Assembly (NCBI RefSeq): GCF_011045215.1
Contig: NZ_CP049201.1
Source of the DNA: Escherichia coli
Lineage (GTDB): Bacteria > Pseudomonadota > Gammaproteobacteria > Enterobacterales > Enterobacteriaceae
Reading direction: 5' to 3' (one strand)
DNA length: 64,000 nucleotides
Shown: positions 19,690 through 34,471 of the stretch, piece by piece
Numbering within the stretch: the stretch's first letter is position 1
Layout of the letters: each line of letters opens with the position of its first letter
The notes under the pieces: generated by a model
The model's database searches: none
Seen by the model: only the letters and a program-made list of their open reading frames with translations
Told to the model about the DNA's origin: nothing
Translations under genes and position numbers: made by a program

Positions 19690-20451
<762 letters not shown>

Positions 20452-20478
20452 AGTGATTCACTGCAATAAAGACGATTC

Positions 20479-22867
<2,389 letters not shown>

Positions 22868-23158
22868 GGTTCTCTCCCTAAAAATCTGTCTGGCAGGGTA
22901 GCGATTTGTGCGTATTGTCACGATTGAGATTTTTTAAGGTGAGGGGGAATTGATAACTTGTAGTTATGTGAAATCGCTATTTTCTGTAGCGGAGATGCAT
23001 TCTTCTGACTTCTTGTCTGAGAAAATGCATAAGAAAAAATAGGTTAAAACTGAGGGGTGGAAAAGAAAGGTGCAATGTTTAGCTATTGTATTCACCGCAC
23101 CTGGACTTTGGCTTACGCATCGGGTGTCTCAATCAACAAAAAGAGTTTTTAGTTTCTG

Positions 23159-23983
23159 CTATTTCTTCTCTGTAATTTTTACACAGTTTTCCAACTGCTT
23201 GATGCTGATCTGCGGGGTCGGCAACTCTTCAGGCATGGTTCCGCCAAGTTCCTGAATGGTTTGTCTCACCTTGCGACCCACGTCAAAGTGTGTGGTGTTA
23301 GCTTGCTGTTTTGAATTCACGCCATCCCGCTTGAGTTTTTCTTCTGTTTGGGTAGCTCGAAAGAGATTAGCCGCCAGTTCTGTTGAACCCATATAATCCA
23401 GGATCTTCTGACTCTTTTTCAGCCCCTTCCGCTGATGGATGGCTTTCTGATCTAATCCACCATACAGCCCCCGGTAACCATGATTCTGAAATATGGCGAA
23501 ATCGATAGCTGTCGCTACCCCAGCTTGCTGCGCTGCCTCAACTAATTGTTTGTTATGTTCTTTCAATTCATTTCTCAGAAAAAGACGCTTTTCGTCTTCA
23601 CGAAGTTGCCTGAAAGCTTCATCGTCAGCCAGCTCCTGCCGTCGGGTCTGGATAGCAAAATAAGTTTGCCCTGCCGCAATAACCGGTTTCGCAGGGTCGC
23701 CGTTTTGTACTACCAGGTAACAGGCATAGCGGGAGAGATGAACATCTTCAAGTTCTCGTTGAGCCCCTGAACCTAATACAACCATTTTGGTGGTTTCAAC
23801 GAAATGGTCAGATGCAGCTTGATTGCTGGCTTCGCACGCTTGAGTCGCGCGGGCAAGTACCTTTTGAAAATTGCGCCAGTCCCGATAATCCAGTAACGGT
23901 GCCAATTCTCTCGCTGACCAAAATTCTTGCCCTTCAGTGCCATAATGCCGTATTTCTTCAAAAGGTTGATGATGTTCGTTCAT
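23159..23983 (-). CDS. dinD: DNA-damage-inducible protein D
   Basis: 274 aa from MNEHHQPFEEIRHYGTEGQEFW; a LexA box lies about 45 bp upstream. Confidence 0.85.
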   Translation of the reverse strand: MNEHHQPFEEIRHYGTEGQEFWSARELAPLLDYRDWRNFQKVLARATQACEASNQAASDHFVETTKMVVLGSGAQRELEDVHLSRYACYLVVQNGDPAKPVIAAGQTYFAIQTRRQELADDEAFRQLREDEKRLFLRNELKEHNKQLVEAAQQAGVATAIDFAIFQNHGYRGLYGGLDQKAIHQRKGLKKSQKILDYMGSTELAANLFRATQTEEKLKRDGVNSKQQANTTHFDVGRKVRQTIQELGGTMPEELPTPQISIKQLENCVKITEKK

Positions 23984-24028
23984 TGCCCACTCCATGTGAT
24001 ATCGATTGCAAAGAAAGTAAATCTGTAA

Positions 24029-24044
24029 CTGTATTTATATACAG
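24029..24044. promoter_or_regulatory. LexA operator (SOS box) in the dinD promoter
   Basis: CTGTATTTATATACAG fits the CTGT-N8-ACAG consensus, just upstream of the dinD start. Confidence 0.7.
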
Positions 24045-24130
24045 TTGTGAGTATCTCACGTTCTCAGTGTGCTGGGCAAAAAGACATCGCAAAATCTGGA
24101 ACAGGCACGCAAAACAGAATTGAAAGTTGC

Positions 24131-24169
24131 GGAGAAGAAAAATGCCGCTCTGTTTGAGTGGGCGGCATT
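24131..24169 (-). terminator. Rho-independent terminator downstream of yicC
   Basis: Stem aatgccgc/gcggcatt followed on the minus strand by a T-run. Confidence 0.45.
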
Positions 24170-24204
24170 TGTGAAGGCTGAAAAGTAAGAATTGGCGTTA
24201 CGAG

Positions 24205-25068
24205 TTATTCAATGTTCTGAATCTGCTCGCGCATCTGCTCAATCAACACTTTCAGCTCAATCGCGGAGTTTGTCACTTCGGCATTGATAGACTTCGAAGC
24301 AAGAGTGTTCGACTCGCGGTTGAACTCCTGCATCATAAAGTCCAGACGACGACCAACGGCTTCTTTTTTCTTCAGAATGTTGTACGTCTCTTTAACATGC
24401 GCTTCGAGGCGGTCCAGTTCTTCGGCAACGTCAATTCGTTGTGCCAGCAGAACCAACTCCTGCTCCAGACGGTTGTTTTCCAACTGCACCTGAGCATCTT
24501 CCAGCTTCGCGACCAAGCGTTCACGCTGCCATTGCAGGATTTCCGGCATATGGGAGCGGACTTTGACCACTTCGGCGGTGACGCCTTCCAGACGCTGCTC
24601 AATCAACGCTTTCAGCGCCTGACCTTCGGTTTCGCGAGCGATGATAAAGTCATCCAGGGTGCCATCCAACGCCGCGAGAATTTCAGCGGCAATCGCGTCG
24701 AGATCCTGCTCCTGGGCTGCCATCACGCCCGGCCAGCGTAGAATATCAACCGGGTTGATTTCCCCTTCGTCACTCTGCATTTTTACCCAGTTCGCGGCAG
24801 TTACCAGCTGTTTAGCCAGTTTTTCATTGAGGATCAGCTCACCTTGTGCGCTAACATCTGGCTCATAGCGCAGGGTACATTCCACTTTACCGCGCGTCAG
24901 GCGAGAACGAATACGCTCACGAACGACAGGTTCAAGGCTACGGAACTGCTCCGGCAGACGAAAGTAAGTTTCCAGATAACGCTGGTTTACCGAGCGCATT
25001 TCCCAGGTTGCGCTCCCCCATTCACCCTTGATTTCACGCCGGGCGTAGGCGGTCATACTGCGGATCAT
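24205..25068 (-). CDS. yicC: YicC-family (UPF0701) stress-induced protein
   Basis: 287 aa from MIRSMTAYARREIKGEWGSATWEMRSVNQRYLE; synteny. Confidence 0.9.
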   Translation of the reverse strand: MIRSMTAYARREIKGEWGSATWEMRSVNQRYLETYFRLPEQFRSLEPVVRERIRSRLTRGKVECTLRYEPDVSAQGELILNEKLAKQLVTAANWVKMQSDEGEINPVDILRWPGVMAAQEQDLDAIAAEILAALDGTLDDFIIARETEGQALKALIEQRLEGVTAEVVKVRSHMPEILQWQRERLVAKLEDAQVQLENNRLEQELVLLAQRIDVAEELDRLEAHVKETYNILKKKEAVGRRLDFMMQEFNRESNTLASKSINAEVTNSAIELKVLIEQMREQIQNIE

Positions 25069-25194
25069 AGACGTTCCTGTTTATAAAAGGAGAGGTGGAA
25101 GGATTATAGCCATCGATGCCTTGTCAGGATAGGAATAACCGCCGGAAGTCCGTATAATGCGCAGCCACATTTGTTTCAAGCCGGAGATTTCAAT

Positions 25195-25911
25195 ATGCGT
25201 CCAGCAGGCCGTAGCAATAATCAGGTGCGTCCCGTTACCCTGACTCGTAACTATACAAAACATGCAGAAGGCTCGGTGCTGGTCGAATTTGGCGATACCA
25301 AAGTGTTGTGTACCGCCTCTATTGAAGAAGGCGTGCCGCGCTTCCTGAAAGGTCAGGGCCAGGGCTGGATCACCGCAGAGTACGGCATGCTGCCACGTTC
25401 TACCCACACCCGTAACGCTCGTGAAGCGGCGAAAGGTAAGCAGGGTGGACGCACAATGGAAATCCAGCGTCTGATCGCCCGTGCTCTTCGCGCGGCAGTA
25501 GATTTGAAAGCGCTGGGTGAGTTCACCATTACGCTGGACTGCGACGTGCTTCAGGCTGATGGTGGCACGCGTACCGCGTCGATTACGGGTGCCTGCGTGG
25601 CGCTGGCAGATGCGCTACAGAAGCTGGTGGAAAACGGCAAGCTGAAAACCAACCCGATGAAAGGGATGGTAGCCGCAGTTTCTGTCGGAATTGTGAACGG
25701 CGAAGCGGTTTGCGATCTGGAATACGTTGAAGACTCAGCCGCAGAGACCGACATGAACGTAGTGATGACCGAAGACGGGCGCATCATTGAAGTGCAGGGG
25801 ACGGCAGAAGGCGAGCCGTTCACCCATGAAGAGTTACTCACCTTGTTGGCGCTGGCCCGAGGGGGAATCGAATCCATTGTAGCGACGCAGAAGGCGGCGC
25901 TGGCAAACTGA
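25195..25911 (+). CDS. rph: Ribonuclease PH, intact full-length form
   Basis: 238 aa from [41 protein letters not shown]; reads through to the wild-type C-terminus. Confidence 0.9.
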
Positions 25912-25916
25912 TTTTT

Positions 25917-25944
25917 AAGGCGACTGATGAGTCGCCTTTTTTTT
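25917..25944 (+). terminator. pyrE attenuator hairpin in the rph-pyrE intercistronic region
   Basis: aaggcgactgatgagtcgcc followed by tttttttt, between the rph stop and the pyrE start. Confidence 0.6.
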
Positions 25945-25976
25945 GTCTGTAGAAAAGTAAGATGAGGAGCGAAGGC

Positions 25977-26618
25977 ATGAAACCATATCAGCGCCAGTTT
26001 ATTGAATTTGCGCTTAGCAAGCAGGTGTTAAAGTTTGGCGAGTTTACGCTGAAATCCGGGCGTAAAAGCCCCTATTTCTTCAACGCCGGGCTGTTTAATA
26101 CCGGGCGCGATCTGGCACTGTTAGGCCGTTTTTACGCTGAAGCATTGGTGGATTCCGGCATTGAGTTCGATCTGCTGTTTGGCCCTGCTTACAAAGGGAT
26201 CCCGATTGCTACCACAACCGCCGTGGCGCTGGCGGAGCATCATGACCTGGACCTGCCGTACTGCTTTAACCGCAAAGAGGCAAAAGACCACGGTGAAGGC
26301 GGCAATCTGGTCGGTAGCGCGTTACAAGGACGCGTAATGCTGGTGGATGATGTGATCACCGCCGGAACGGCGATTCGCGAGTCGATGGAAATTATTCAGG
26401 CTAATGGCGCGACGCTTGCTGGCGTGTTGATTTCGCTCGATCGTCAGGAACGTGGGCGCGGCGAGATTTCGGCGATTCAGGAAGTTGAGCGTGATTACAA
26501 CTGCAAGGTGATCTCTATCATTACCCTGAAAGACTTGATTGCTTACCTGGAAGAGAAGCCAGAAATGGCGGAACATCTGGCGGCGGTTAAGGCCTATCGC
26601 GAAGAGTTTGGCGTTTAA
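25977..26618 (+). CDS. pyrE: Orotate phosphoribosyltransferase
   Basis: 213 aa from [38 protein letters not shown]. Confidence 0.95.
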
Positions 26619-26624
26619 AAATAT

Positions 26625-26905
26625 GCGCTGTGCAGGGTTTTTGCTGTGCACAGCGTGATGCGCTTTAAGATATCGTGTTAATCTGCTTTCGCCAGCAGTG
26701 GCAATAGCGTTTCCGGCCTTTTGTGCCGGGAGGGTCGGCGAGTCGCTGACTTAACGCCAGTAGTATGTCCATATACCCAAAGTCGCTTCATTGTACTTAA
26801 GTACGCTTCGCGTACGTCGCGCTGACGCGCTCAGTACAGTTACGCGCCTTCGGGATGGTTTAATGGTATTGCCGCTGTTGGCACCTCTTTTGGCCGCCGT
26901 GATGT
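26625..26905 (+). ncRNA. Putative retron msr/msd non-coding region (template for msDNA); boundaries approximate
   Basis: About 290 bp non-coding stretch between the pyrE stop and the RT start, with several inverted repeats (cgctgtgca...tgcacagcg at 26626-26655; ccggc...gccgg at 26713-26729; gtacttaagtac at 26793-26804). The position immediately 5' of a retron-type RT is the canonical msr-msd location. Exact a1/a2 repeats and the branching G were not resolved by eye. Confidence 0.45.
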
Positions 26906-26915
26906 GGAGAGTGGA

Positions 26916-27875
26916 ATGGATGCTACCCGGATACCCCTTCTGACGCTCGATTTGTTCGGCTCGCCGGGCTGGAGCGCCGATAAAGAAATACAGCGGCTGT
27001 ATGCGCTCAGTAATCATGCCGGACGCCATTACCGACGCATTATTCTTTCTAAACGCCACGGTGGCCAGCGGTTGGTATTAGCCCCTGATTACTTGCTCAA
27101 AACCGTACAGCGCAACATTCTTAAGAACGTCCTTTCACAATTTCCGCTTTCCCCTTTTGCTACAGCCTACCGACCAGGTTGCCCAATCGTCAGCAACGCG
27201 CAGCCACACTGCCAACAGCCGCAGATCCTGAAACTCGATATCGAAAACTTTTTCGATAGCATTAGCTGGTTACAGGTCTGGCGTGTGTTTCGCCAGGCCC
27301 AGTTGCCACGTAATGTGGTAACCATGCTGACCTGGATTTGTTGTTATAACGACGCGTTACCGCAGGGGGCACCAACTTCGCCAGCCATTTCCAATCTTGT
27401 GATGCGCTGTTTTGATGAACGCATAGGGGAATGGTGTCAGGCTCGGGGAATTACCTACACCCGCTACTGCGATGACATGACCTTTTCAGGTCACTTCAAT
27501 GCCCGCCAGGTTAAAAATAAAGTGTGCGGATTGTTAGCGGAGCTGGGCCTGAGCCTCAATCAACGCAAAAGCTGCCTGATAGCTGCCTGTAAGCGCCAGC
27601 AGGTAACCGGGATTGTTGTTAATCACAAACCACAGCTTGCCCGCGAAGCGCGCCGGGCGCTGCGTCAGGAAGTACACTTGTGCCAAAAATATGGCGTTAT
27701 TTCGCATCTTAGTCATCGTGGTGAACTTGATCCTTCTGGCGATCTCCACGCACAGGCAACGGCGTATCTTTATGCTTTGCAGGGAAGAATAAACTGGTTA
27801 TTGCAAATCAACCCTGAGGATGAGGCCTTTCAACAGGCGAGAGAGAGTGTTAAGCGAATGCTGGTTGCAGGGTAA
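26916..27875 (+). CDS. Retron-type reverse transcriptase
   Basis: 319 aa from MDATRIPLL. RT finger/palm motifs: QGAPTSPAISNLV, catalytic YCDD box (YTRYCDDMTFSG) and the retron-characteristic VTG region (RQQVTGIVVNHKP). No extra fused domains. Sits in an insertion between pyrE and slmA. Confidence 0.8.
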   Translation: MDATRIPLLTLDLFGSPGWSADKEIQRLYALSNHAGRHYRRIILSKRHGGQRLVLAPDYLLKTVQRNILKNVLSQFPLSPFATAYRPGCPIVSNAQPHCQQPQILKLDIENFFDSISWLQVWRVFRQAQLPRNVVTMLTWICCYNDALPQGAPTSPAISNLVMRCFDERIGEWCQARGITYTRYCDDMTFSGHFNARQVKNKVCGLLAELGLSLNQRKSCLIAACKRQQVTGIVVNHKPQLAREARRALRQEVHLCQKYGVISHLSHRGELDPSGDLHAQATAYLYALQGRINWLLQINPEDEAFQQARESVKRMLVAG

Positions 27876-27920
27876 GAAAAGCGTCAGGCAGACGTTTCTG
27901 CCTGACCGTTTAGGGGAGAA

Positions 27921-28517
27921 TTACTGCAACTGCGCGGCAATTAGCGGCCAGCGGGCGTCAAAATCATCCGTCGGGCGATATTTAAATTCGCTGCGGACAA
28001 AACGTGACAGCATACCTTCACAGAAGGCCAGGATCTGGCTTGCCAGCAGGGTTTCATCGGTGGTGTAACCTTCACTCTCACGCATTCTCTTTTCACGCAA
28101 TACCTGACGCAGCTGCGCTTCAATACGCTCGAAAAGTTGGTTGATGCGCCCTTGCAGGCGGTCTTGTTCAAACATCAGCGCATGCCCGGTAAGGATGCGG
28201 GTCAGGCCAGGATTACGCTCACCAAAACCGAGGAGCAACAACACGATCAGACGCAGGCGCGCTGTGGTGTCTTTCTCATCTTTCAGAATCAAATTGATGC
28301 GAGTAATCAGGCTATCTTCGATAAACTCAATCAGGCTATCGAACATGCGGGTCTTACTGGGGAAGTGGCGATACAGTGCCGCTTCGGAAACGCCGACAGA
28401 GGCGGCCAGTTTTGCCGTCGTGATACGTTGGCTTCCATCGCTGGATTCCAGCATCAGCGCCAGAGACTGAAGTATTTCCTCGCGACGGTTCCTTTTCGCA
28501 GTTTGTTTTTCTGCCAT
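27921..28517 (-). CDS. slmA: Nucleoid occlusion factor SlmA (TetR family)
   Basis: 198 aa from [52 protein letters not shown]. Confidence 0.9.
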
Positions 28518-28623
28518 GTTACAAAATACCCCTGAAAATAAGCACTTGCCAGGCGGCACCCACGCTATGACCGCAAACGAAATGTTTGCGGCTATGTTAT
28601 GACGTTATTCGGATGCGTATGTG

Positions 28624-29082
28624 TTACTGACGACCAGAGTGACCAAAGCCGCCTTCACCGCGGTCGGTGGCGTCGAAATCTTCCACCAGATTAAATTCAG
28701 CCTGTACTACCGGAACAAAAATCATCTGGGCGATGCGTTCGCCAGGTTGAATGGTGAAGCTGTCCTGACCACGGTTCCACACGGAAATCATCAACTGGCC
28801 CTGATAGTCAGAATCGATCAATCCTACCAGGTTACCAAGCACGATACCGTGCTTATGTCCCAATCCGGAGCGAGGCAGCATCATTGCCGCCAGTGAAGGA
28901 TCGGCAATATGAATCGCCAGCCCGGTCGGAACCAGCGTAGTGTCACCCGGAGCCAGTTCTACGGCGTCGTCGAGACAGGCACGCAGGTCAAGTCCGGCAG
29001 AGCCAGAGGTGGCATAAGTCGGGAGCGGAAATTCCTTCCCAACGCGCGGGTCCAGAATCTTAACGTCGATTTTTTTCATCAT
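28624..29082 (-). CDS. dut: dUTP diphosphatase
   Basis: 152 aa, [35 protein letters not shown]. Confidence 0.95.
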
Positions 29083-30280
29083 AACGGGTCACGATCTCGT
29101 CGAGTAATAATTGGCCAAGGAGCTCTTTTCGCTCAAGCGGTAAGACTTTATCTCCGTCCTGCCAGAAAAGGTGTAATGCGTTGTTGTCGCTGTTAAATCC
29201 TTGAGTTGGCTGGGAAACATCGTTCGCGCAGATCAGATCAAGGTTTTTACGGATACGTTTTTGCCGGGCGTATTCTTCCACATTATTTGTTTCGGCGGCA
29301 AATCCAACGACGTAGGGTCGATGGTCTTTTAGTGCGGCAACGCCTGCGACGATATCGGGGTTTTTAACCATTTTTATTGTTAATTCATCACCCTGCGTGG
29401 CCTGCTTTTTGATTTTTTCTGGGGCCACGGTAGCTGCGCGATAATCCGCCACGGCGGCGCAGCCGATAAAAATATTTTGCTGCTGTACAGAAGCATTCAC
29501 GGCGGCTTCCATTTCCAGCGCAGTCATCACATCAACACGTTTAACAAACGGTGGCGTCGGTAGTGATACCGGACCTGATATCAGCGTGACGTTCGCGCCA
29601 CGACGGGCGGCGGCGGCGGCGATAGCAAAACCCATCTTGCCGGAGCTGTGATTAGAGATATAACGCACCGGATCGAGCGGTTCACGCGTCGGGCCGGCGG
29701 TAATCATAATGTTCAGATGTTTCAGGTCGTTGACGGGCGAAAAATGCGCTACCGCCATATCCACAATGGTTAACGGATCGAGCATTCGCCCAGGGCCGAT
29801 ATCACCACAAGCCTGACTGCCACTGTCTGGCCCCCAGATGAGCAAACCACGGGAGGAAAGCACCTCTAAATTATGCTGCGTGGCAGCGGCACGGTACATC
29901 TGCTGGTTCATGGCGGGGAGCACGGCTACAGGCGCAGGTGTAGCCAGACAAATCGTCGATACCAGGTCATTCGCCATTCCGGCAGCAACACGGGCAATCA
30001 AATCTGCCGTGGCAGGGGCGAGAATCACTAAATCAGCCCATTTACCCAGCTCAATATGGCCCATAGCGGCTTCGGCTGCCGGGTCCAGCAGACTGTCGGA
30101 AACGGGATAACCAGAAACCGCCTGCAAGCTAAGTGGGGTGATAAAGGCTTTTGCCGCTTCGGTCATGGCTACGCGGACGTCGGCCCCGCGATCGCGCAAA
30201 CGACGCACCAGTTCAGGGGTTTTATAGGCAGCAATACCGCCGCTAACGCCGAGAACGATTTTTTTACCGGCCAGGCTCAT
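29060..30280 (-). CDS. coaBC: Bifunctional phosphopantothenoylcysteine decarboxylase / phosphopantothenate-cysteine ligase
   Basis: 406 aa from [20 protein letters not shown]; the track ORF has a 24-codon upstream extension. Confidence 0.95.
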
Positions 30281-30451
30281 GATGATTTTTCCTGTTGGGT
30301 GACACCAGAAGTTGGCGATTTTATCACAATACTTTTGTTGTCGTGCCTTCACCTGAGAATCACTTTGCGAGGCGCTTTCCAGGATTGAAAACTGGCCGTC
30401 GATTTAACGGAACGGCTATGACAGGATGCGAGCACCACAAAGGAGGTGAAG

Positions 30452-31120
30452 GTGAAAAACAATGCACTGCTGTTGATGCCGCGCGAAAAAATGCTGAAGT
30501 TTGGTATTAGCGCCTTAACGGATGTCGAGCTGCTGGCGCTATTTCTGCGTACCGGAACGCGCGGTAAAGATGTATTAACCCTGGCAAAAGAGATGCTGGA
30601 GAATTTCGGCTCTCTTTATGGCTTGTTAACCTCTGAATATGAACAATTTAGTGGTGTTCATGGAATTGGCGTGGCGAAATTTGCCCAGTTAAAGGGGATT
30701 GCTGAACTGGCGCGGCGTTACTACAACGTGCGGATGCGTGAAGAAAGCCCTTTACTCAGCCCGGAGATGACGCGGGAATTTTTACAAAGCCAGCTCACGG
30801 GTGAGGAGCGGGAGATCTTTATGGTGATCTTTCTCGACTCACAACACCGGGTTATAACGCATAGCCGTCTTTTTTCCGGCACGCTAAACCATGTTGAAGT
30901 CCATCCTCGGGAAATTATCCGCGAAGCGATAAAAATAAACGCCTCGGCGCTGATCCTTGCACATAATCACCCTTCGGGTTGTGCTGAACCCAGTAAAGCG
31001 GATAAACTCATTACTGAACGGATAATAAAGAGTTGTCAGTTCATGGATTTACGCGTGCTCGACCATATCGTGATTGGGCGTGGAGAGTATGTTTCTTTTG
31101 CCGAACGCGGCTGGATTTAA
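30452..31120 (+). CDS. yicR: RadC-like JAB-domain protein (UPF0758)
   Basis: 222 aa from a GTG start 5 nt downstream of an AGGAGG Shine-Dalgarno; JAMM-type motif HNHPSG. Confidence 0.85.
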
Positions 31121-31315
31121 CCCGCTATGCGCGATCCTTCGGGATCTTTGTCTGTTCGGGACTTGAGCACATCGCTGAGTCAGCGTATACTACGCCACCT
31201 TTGAGAATCTCGGGTTTGGCATTTGGGCCTGGCAATCGAGAGTTCACATAGAACTGCGATGACCGGGCTGTAAAGCCTGACGAGGCGCCAATACCCCATA
31301 CGAAGCTCGAGCTAA

Positions 31316-31573
<258 letters not shown>

Positions 31574-31590
31574 GTACTTAGAGGAAATAA

Positions 31591-31761
<171 letters not shown>

Positions 31762-31778
31762 TTCTCGCTTTGATGTAA

Positions 31779-31808
31779 CAAAAAACCTCGCTCCGGCGGG
31801 GTTTTTTG
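31779..31808 (+). terminator. Rho-independent terminator of rpmBG
   Basis: aaaaacctcgctccggcggggttttttg: GC-rich hairpin followed by a T-run. Confidence 0.5.
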
Positions 31809-31858
31809 TTATCTGCTTGCCCCCATATTGACTGCATCTGTTCATTCCTGGAGATGCT

Positions 31859-32668
31859 ATGCCTGAATTACCCGAAGTTGAAACCAGCCGTCGCGGCATA
31901 GAACCGCATCTCGTTGGTGCAACCATTCTTCATGCGGTGGTGCGCAACGGACGCTTGCGCTGGCCGGTTTCAGAAGAGATCTACCGTTTAAGCGACCAAC
32001 CAGTGCTTAGCGTGCAGCGGCGGGCTAAATATCTGCTGCTGGAGCTGCCTGAGGGCTGGATTATCATTCATTTGGGGATGTCTGGCAGCCTGCGCATCCT
32101 TCCAGAAGAACTTCCCCCTGAAAAGCATGACCATGTGGATTTGGTGATGAGCAACGGTAAAGTGCTGCGCTACACCGATCCGCGCCGCTTTGGTGCCTGG
32201 CTGTGGACCAAAGAGCTGGAAGGGCACAACGTGCTGGCTCATCTTGGACCGGAGCCGCTTAGCGACGATTTCAATGGTGAGTACCTGCATCAGAAGTGCG
32301 CGAAGAAAAAAACGGCGATTAAACCGTGGCTGATGGATAACAAGCTGGTGGTAGGGGTAGGGAATATCTATGCCAGCGAATCACTGTTTGCGGCGGGGAT
32401 CCATCCGGATCGGCTGGCGTCATCACTGTCGCTGGCAGAGTGTGAATTGTTAGCTCGGGTGATTAAAGCGGTGTTGCTGCGTTCGATTGAGCAGGGTGGT
32501 ACAACGCTGAAAGATTTTCTGCAAAGTGATGGTAAACCGGGCTATTTCGCGCAGGAATTGCAGGTTTACGGGCGAAAAGGCGAGCCCTGTCGGGTGTGCG
32601 GTACGCCGATTGTGGCGACTAAACATGCGCAGCGGGCAACGTTTTATTGTCGGCAGTGCCAGAAGTAA
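31859..32668 (+). CDS. mutM: Formamidopyrimidine-DNA glycosylase
   Basis: 269 aa starting MPELPEVET (N-terminal Pro-Glu catalytic dyad); C-terminal zinc finger CRVCGTPI...CRQCQ. Confidence 0.95.
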
Positions 32669-32706
32669 TTCATGCGCGCCGGATGGCATACCATCCGGCA
32701 TAAACG

Positions 32707-34471
<1,765 letters not shown>

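Follow-up and report, generated by a model that had tools for sequence, protein, structure and literature searches.

Retron-Ec107 between pyrE and slmA of Escherichia coli: a reverse transcriptase and msr-msd cassette without an effector gene in cis

Described relatives of retron-Ec107

Characterised retron defences are tripartite and need an effector (Mestre 2020, PMC7736814; PMC12746101). Retrons are now seen as three-part, toxin/antitoxin-like defence systems, with the Ec107-like clade, concentrated in gut Bacillota, as the main exception. According to Mestre 2020 (PMC7736814), the Retron-Eco5 branch of clade 2 lacks any associated protein cluster, shares a node with PRTase-linked reverse transcriptases (RTs) and has probably lost its associated protein; effectors in trans or a different mechanism were posed as options, and most genomes with orphan retrons were found to lack homologues of known retron-associated proteins. 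A 2026 survey of metagenomes (SPIRE) counted 192 clade2_Ec107like retrons, ranking them second in abundance among the retron groups, and found no recurring accessory modules. The sequence-only reading of the present locus, which gave Ec107 no recognised effector, agrees with Mestre 2020 (PMC7736814); the observation is right, yet not new, having been in print since 2020. Phosphate starvation and stationary phase are reported to induce Ec107. It was left out of the defence assays of Millman 2020, and our literature search returned no functional study, phage test or phenotype for it.

The closest effector-bearing relatives are the type III-A1 retrons, whose RTs form the sister clade (RT_III-A HMMs score second, and an NJ tree agrees). 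Both groups have the non-coding RNA (ncRNA) directly before the RT, but genes for PRTase_III-A and WH_III-A are found further upstream in type III-A1 loci and not in Ec107-like ones. Retron-Eco11 (type III-A3) belongs to a related RT lineage, and its msDNA is bound by the phage helicases UvsW/D10, of T4 and T5 respectively, which act as the trigger (PMC12746101). Helicase-bound msDNA offers a model for possible sensing by an Ec107-type msDNA; Eco11, however, needs a PRTase-wHTH effector that depletes PRPP, whereas Ec107 has none. Retron-Eco1 (Ec86; PDB 7v9x/7v9u) provides the best full-length structural match to the RT studied here (TM 0.70, ~25% identity, shared fingers-palm-thumb fold), but encodes an NDT-type effector alongside. 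Finally, DRT2, DRT9 and AbiK/Abi-P2 use an RT and its nucleic-acid product as output without a separate effector. This serves as a lead on how Ec107 might work only, since these are distant RT families (Foldseek E-values of 1e-8 to 1e-11, TM 0.40–0.56 on the query) with other product chemistry and no msDNA, and the RT studied here scores far below the cut-off of the NCBIfam Drt2 model.

To this background we add quantitative support for a functional bare cassette, evidence for its old residence between pyrE and slmA, and specific arguments against PyrE as its partner. An intact, selected E. coli member, long at one site, offers a clean test case of 1.3 kb in a tractable host.

Anatomy of the insertion

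The DNA analysed, hereafter the window, is a 64,000-nt stretch of the E. coli contig NZ_CP049201.1. Alignment to the empty site of DH1 (L001) revealed a 1,299-bp insertion at 26621–27919 (plus strand), with junctions at 26620/26621 and 27919/27920. It stands in place of the 34-nt palindromic spacer that separates the convergent genes pyrE and slmA in the empty site. The surrounding order, yicC-rph-pyrE-[insertion]-slmA-dut-coaBC-radC, is an E. coli core segment; as annotated in matching records, pyrE for orotate phosphoribosyltransferase (25977–26618, plus strand) and slmA (27921–28517, minus strand) flank the retron and lie outside it. Searched alone by megablast, the insertion matched 381 of 5,426 complete E. 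coli genomes (7%) at an identity of at least 94%, in every case as a full-length, single, chromosomal copy at the pyrE-slmA site.

The insertion is the known retron-Ec107 (Retron-Eco5). PADLOC called the RT as RT_Ec107-like (3.1e-132, 438.6 bits; next best RT_III-A, 5e-94, 313 bits), and reviews including Mestre 2020 (PMC7736814) describe retron-Ec107 as replacing a 34-bp palindrome between pyrE and slmA/ttk, so that both the RT and the site bear out the Ec107 identification made from the sequence alone. Site, replaced palindrome, length of ~1.3 kb, 319-aa YCDD RT and lack of an accessory gene all correspond to the published element (Herzer et al. 1992; Mestre 2020), from which the copy in the window shows no substantive difference. 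We are nearly certain of the anatomy set out below.

The left end carries a hairpin with perfect 9-bp arms just 3′ of the pyrE stop codon (26626–26655, plus strand; inverted repeat search). Every pyrE-adjacent copy in our Enterobacterales alignment retains it, with compensatory changes, and it probably serves as a substitute terminator or insulator for pyrE. At the right end, in the gap between the RT gene and the convergent slmA, a terminator scan called a terminator-like hairpin rich in G+C (27883–27906), whose 10-bp stem precedes a run of T on the minus strand. The insertion removed a shared bidirectional terminator palindrome of 34 nt, yet brings one hairpin per end, of which the left may re-establish termination for pyrE and the right for slmA and the RT gene.

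An extended –10 element, TG-n-TAATCT, was visible at 26676–26684 (plus strand), ~7 nt upstream of the a1 repeat. The pattern TGnTAnnnT recurs in seven of the eight aligned Enterobacterales copies, the exception being that of Budvicia, and we infer that it is the retron's own promoter. A simple sigma-70 scan missed the msr promoter, which emerged from the alignment only.

The msr-msd gene for the ncRNA (26685–26886, plus strand, ~200 nt) was delineated by folding (z = –3.3), covariation and a covariance model. It displays the expected retron features: a closing stem of the inverted repeats a1 (26691–26711) and a2 (26862–26882, both plus strand; inverted repeat search, with compensatory changes in this helix), hairpins in msr, a stem-loop in msd and, following a1, a conserved G. 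Of the 59 pairs in the consensus of the eight Enterobacterales copies, 18 show compensatory double changes. The covariance model built from these eight copies recovers relatives in Bacillota; in 46 loci, mostly from that phylum, it places the ncRNA on the RT strand just before the RT. In the resulting alignment of 49 ncRNAs, 90% of cells were paired (31–41% in controls with slid partners) and double changes occurred at 55 of the 59 pairs, figures that are somewhat inflated because the alignment was fitted to the covariance model. An Rfam scan of window positions 20000–34000 (E ≤ 1) returned no family on the ncRNA region.

The RT of Ec107 primes on the 2′-OH of a branching G and copies msd into msDNA. 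Here, the branching G is probably position 26707, which follows AATA directly after the a1 stem, within an ATAG that is invariant among the aligned copies. A 107-nt msDNA of Ec107 was reportedly demonstrated experimentally in the 1990s. Counting this published length back from the base before a2, the predicted msDNA is the reverse complement of the msd template at 26760–26866 (minus strand). It would fold into a long stem leading to a three-way junction with two small hairpins (DNA fold of –22.6 kcal/mol, z = –3.8). The 49 ncRNAs, from two phyla, hardly differ in the inner stem of msd (GTAC...GTAC) or in the first of the small hairpins (window positions ~26790–26845; columns 250–282 of alignment A5), whereas the closing a1/a2 stem varies freely with compensation. 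Such conservation suggests sequence-specific recognition of the msDNA tip or of its template.

The RT gene (26916–27875, plus strand) encodes 319 aa; its ATG at 26916 is preceded by a conserved GGAG Shine-Dalgarno sequence (26907–26910). Strain ET350 encodes the same protein from end to end (annotated WP_000340176.1). Besides RVT_1, no Pfam domain was found. The NAQPH motif of region X (residue 94), the YCDD catalytic box (184) and the VTG motif of region Y (230) are all in place. In Foldseek searches with the AlphaFold model (pLDDT 92.7), retron RTs were the best structural matches, and stand-alone retron RT subunits of 306–314 residues (Ec86, Ec78/Eco7 and Ec83; TM ~0.70–0.74) align with the model along its whole length. 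By its predicted fold, the protein is a plain retron RT without a spare or fused effector domain.

Distribution, selection and the missing effector

Neither the insertion, nor the RT as a fusion, nor the surrounding ±20 kb holds an effector. All ORFs of at least 30 aa inside the element were compared between the window and six diverged copies, and no non-RT ORF kept its boundaries in the copies whose RTs are 86%, 72%, 68% or 62% identical. The largest such ORF, of 102 aa, runs antisense to the ncRNA and the RT start (26751–27059, minus strand). It is missing in the 86% copy, is cut short or interrupted by stop codons in those with RTs of 72%, 69% and 68% identity, and has no PADLOC or NCBIfam match; it lies in the codon-complementary frame of the RT, a frame that tends to stay open. 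This ORF and the other small ORFs were consequently rejected as coding, their residual similarity being due to the conserved ncRNA and RT sequence beneath them. All annotated genes within ±20 kb are housekeeping genes, and the locus has neither a match to an HMM derived from PRTase_III-A nor a WH_III-A-like ORF. A tripartite system would have its effector in the cassette or fused to the RT, and neither is the case here. The sequence-only reading had described an insertion accounted for by a non-coding region and a bare RT, ending 45 bp before the slmA stop, with no cis effector and a spurious antisense ORF. It stands in each of these respects: no second ORF is conserved, no fused domain appeared in Pfam or in the structural model, and exactly 45 bp separate the RT stop codon (27873–27875) from that of slmA (27921–27923, minus strand).

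The same picture holds across relatives. When neighbouring ORFs were clustered across 91 loci, a conserved upstream pair was found in eight loci only, all with RT identities of 40% or less, and PADLOC named it PRTase_III-A and WH_III-A. HMMs built from this pair matched nothing within ±8 kb in the ~80 other loci, in a screen of ORF clustering and two HMMs that could miss a very divergent or very small partner. In line with Mestre 2020 and the SPIRE survey, the Ec107-like loci compared have no recurrent accessory gene beside the RT. Same-strand ORFs abutting the RT in Bacillota were considered as effectors and dismissed, as they encode assorted housekeeping proteins (e.g. a response regulator, a ROK kinase, YchF and a U32 peptidase) without PADLOC matches. 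The ncRNA model matched none of the eight PRTase-bearing loci and had one match outside the Ec107-like clade (L081). In an NJ tree of the RTs from loci L003–L091, the PRTase-linked clade stands apart from one large bare clade. The bare cassette characterises a large clade that spans Enterobacterales and Bacillota and is sister to the type III-A1 retrons.

Within E. coli and its relatives, the pyrE-slmA site is also occupied in a divergent Escherichia lineage (RT 86% identical), in another member of the Enterobacteriaceae (72%) and in three Pseudocitrobacter genomes (68–69%; same-site copies at L003, L006, L009, L012 and L013). RT and flank identities fall together, with flanks of 94–98% where the RT is 86% identical and of 81–87% where it is 70–71%. 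Adjacency to pyrE can therefore be traced to a single insertion event. The pattern suggests an old vertical residence at pyrE-slmA, with faster evolution of the retron than of its surroundings and repeated loss, rather than a recent insertion into E. coli. In the strains with the 86% allele, an integrase/AlpA-type island, absent at that position from the window, lies just beyond yicC (L003, 139–3102; L004, 491–1750).

Other sites are used as well. A bare copy with a 62% identical RT sits between cyaY and cyaA in Leminorella (6001–6972 in L010 and L011), and a 55% copy occupies yet another site in Budvicia. Both at the Leminorella cyaY/cyaA site and, against slmA, in Pseudocitrobacter (L009, L012 and L013), the RT gene and the gene facing it overlap by 4 bp at their stops; the element apparently prefers terminator spacers between convergent genes, or persists there preferentially. 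In one Leminorella grimontii assembly, the retron-adjacent cyaA is called in three fragments (L011, 6969–9529), probably reflecting assembly frameshifts, as the gene is intact in L010.

In the NJ tree, Bacillota lineages enclose the Escherichia/Pseudocitrobacter/Leminorella group, and the Budvicia RT branches apart from it, together with Bacillota RTs. This topology calls for two or more transfers of the bare unit between phyla, and the 1.3-kb cassette would therefore have become established repeatedly in unrelated hosts. No relative above 42% identity was found in phage and plasmid collections, and hence no evidence of carriage on catalogued mobile elements.

Both parts of the cassette are under purifying or structural selection. 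Pairwise Nei-Gojobori estimates from unsaturated comparisons gave the RT a dN/dS of 0.12–0.14, and 29 RTs of 48–86% identity to that of the window share YCDD and the other catalytic and structural motifs without exception; the ncRNA covaries as described above. Very probably, then, retron-Ec107 has a selectively maintained function.

Possible modes of action

Our preferred explanation, to which we assign a probability of roughly 55% as a whole, is that window positions 26621–27919 form a complete two-component retron, acting as an RT-msDNA unit without a dedicated effector. Its lineage would have lost the PRTase/WH effector pair; the RT would prime on the branching G and copy msd into the 107-nt msDNA; and the resulting RT-msDNA particle would be the working unit, acting through something that any host or phage supplies. 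Its most plausible role would be that of a multicopy, branched-DNA sensor or decoy for enzymes acting on nucleic acids, for example the phage helicases by which type III-A3 is set off, although this decoy or sensor mechanism in particular, drawn by analogy, seems to us doubtful. As the 1.3-kb unit appears to have settled independently in unrelated hosts and been kept there, its output should depend on a universal host or phage factor or on the particle itself, and dependence on a specific unlinked effector is unlikely. Whether a dedicated effector is absent from the entire genome we consider an even bet. More tentatively still, Ec107-like retrons may be a true two-component class, in which the RT-msDNA particle with its conserved Y-tipped stem is itself the output, titrating or sensing branched-DNA enzymes of phage or host, or coupling to a universal host factor. 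If so, they would represent a mode of retron action not yet described. The question posed by the cassette is what an RT-msDNA particle does alone.

Alternatively, the cassette could be the sensor/antitoxin half of a tripartite retron whose dedicated effector is encoded in trans, an option listed in Mestre 2020 (PMC7736814). All characterised retron defences being tripartite, and RT and ncRNA being under selection so that some output must exist, this reading has its appeal. It is nonetheless improbable in our assessment: most orphan-retron genomes lack homologues of known retron-associated proteins (Mestre 2020, PMC7736814), nothing effector-like lies within ±8 to 20 kb, and a bare unit present in two phyla and acquired independently by different Enterobacterales is hard to reconcile with a specific unlinked partner.

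Host PyrE, a PRTase encoded immediately upstream on the same strand, might instead have been co-opted as effector. The order pyrE-ncRNA-RT mirrors the PRTase-WH-ncRNA-RT order of sister type III-A1 loci, PRPP depletion is how the PRTase of Eco11 acts (PMC12746101), and the adjacency is kept in copies with RT identities of 100%, 86%, 72% and 68%; it had already been noted, and doubted, in Mestre 2020 (PMC7736814). We nevertheless give this idea very little credence. The identical PyrE protein (WP_000806177.1) occurs in carriers and non-carriers and hence does not co-vary with retron carriage. The retron PRTase HMM matches it over the generic PRPP loop only (9.5 bits, filters off), and it lacks the C-terminal PNN present in seven of eight retron PRTases; the comparison relied on this tripeptide and the HMM, since an exact regular expression (Gx14PNNxP) missed positive controls. 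PyrE was thus rejected as a retron-type PRTase. Moreover, pyrE-adjacent copies diverge together with their flanks and so stem from one insertion event, the Leminorella (cyaY/cyaA), Budvicia and Bacillota copies adjoin no PRTase, and a conserved hairpin and the retron's own putative promoter lie between pyrE and msr.

Equally improbable to us is that the cassette no longer functions and is merely tolerated, as the remnant of a type III-A-like retron deprived of its effector. The lack of a known phenotype, carriage in just 7% of E. coli genomes and the missing effector genes of the sister clade would fit such a relic. The low dN/dS of the RT, its invariant catalytic residues and the strong ncRNA covariation speak against it, as do intact copies at one site in lineages whose flanks are just 81–87% identical, the abundance of the Ec107-like clade in the survey and the production of branched msDNA by Ec107, already published according to the literature that cites it. 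A non-defensive, decaying relic, one of the options raised by the sequence-only reading, is accordingly disfavoured by dN/dS and covariation.

An effector hidden inside the insertion, as a small or overlapping ORF or a fused domain, is the least credible option and can practically be set aside: its candidates, the 102-aa antisense ORF and an ORF of 50 aa that covers msd and the start of the RT gene on the plus strand, have unconserved boundaries and a similarity explained by the underlying ncRNA and RT, the antisense ORF occupies the codon-complementary RT frame without family matches, and the RT fold leaves no spare domain.

Elsewhere in the window, positions 31704–31809 gave sub-threshold Rfam matches to istR, Leu_leader and RNAI (26–31 bits, all below the gathering score). 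These matches rest on one G+C-rich hairpin followed by a U-tract, which is most likely an intrinsic terminator.
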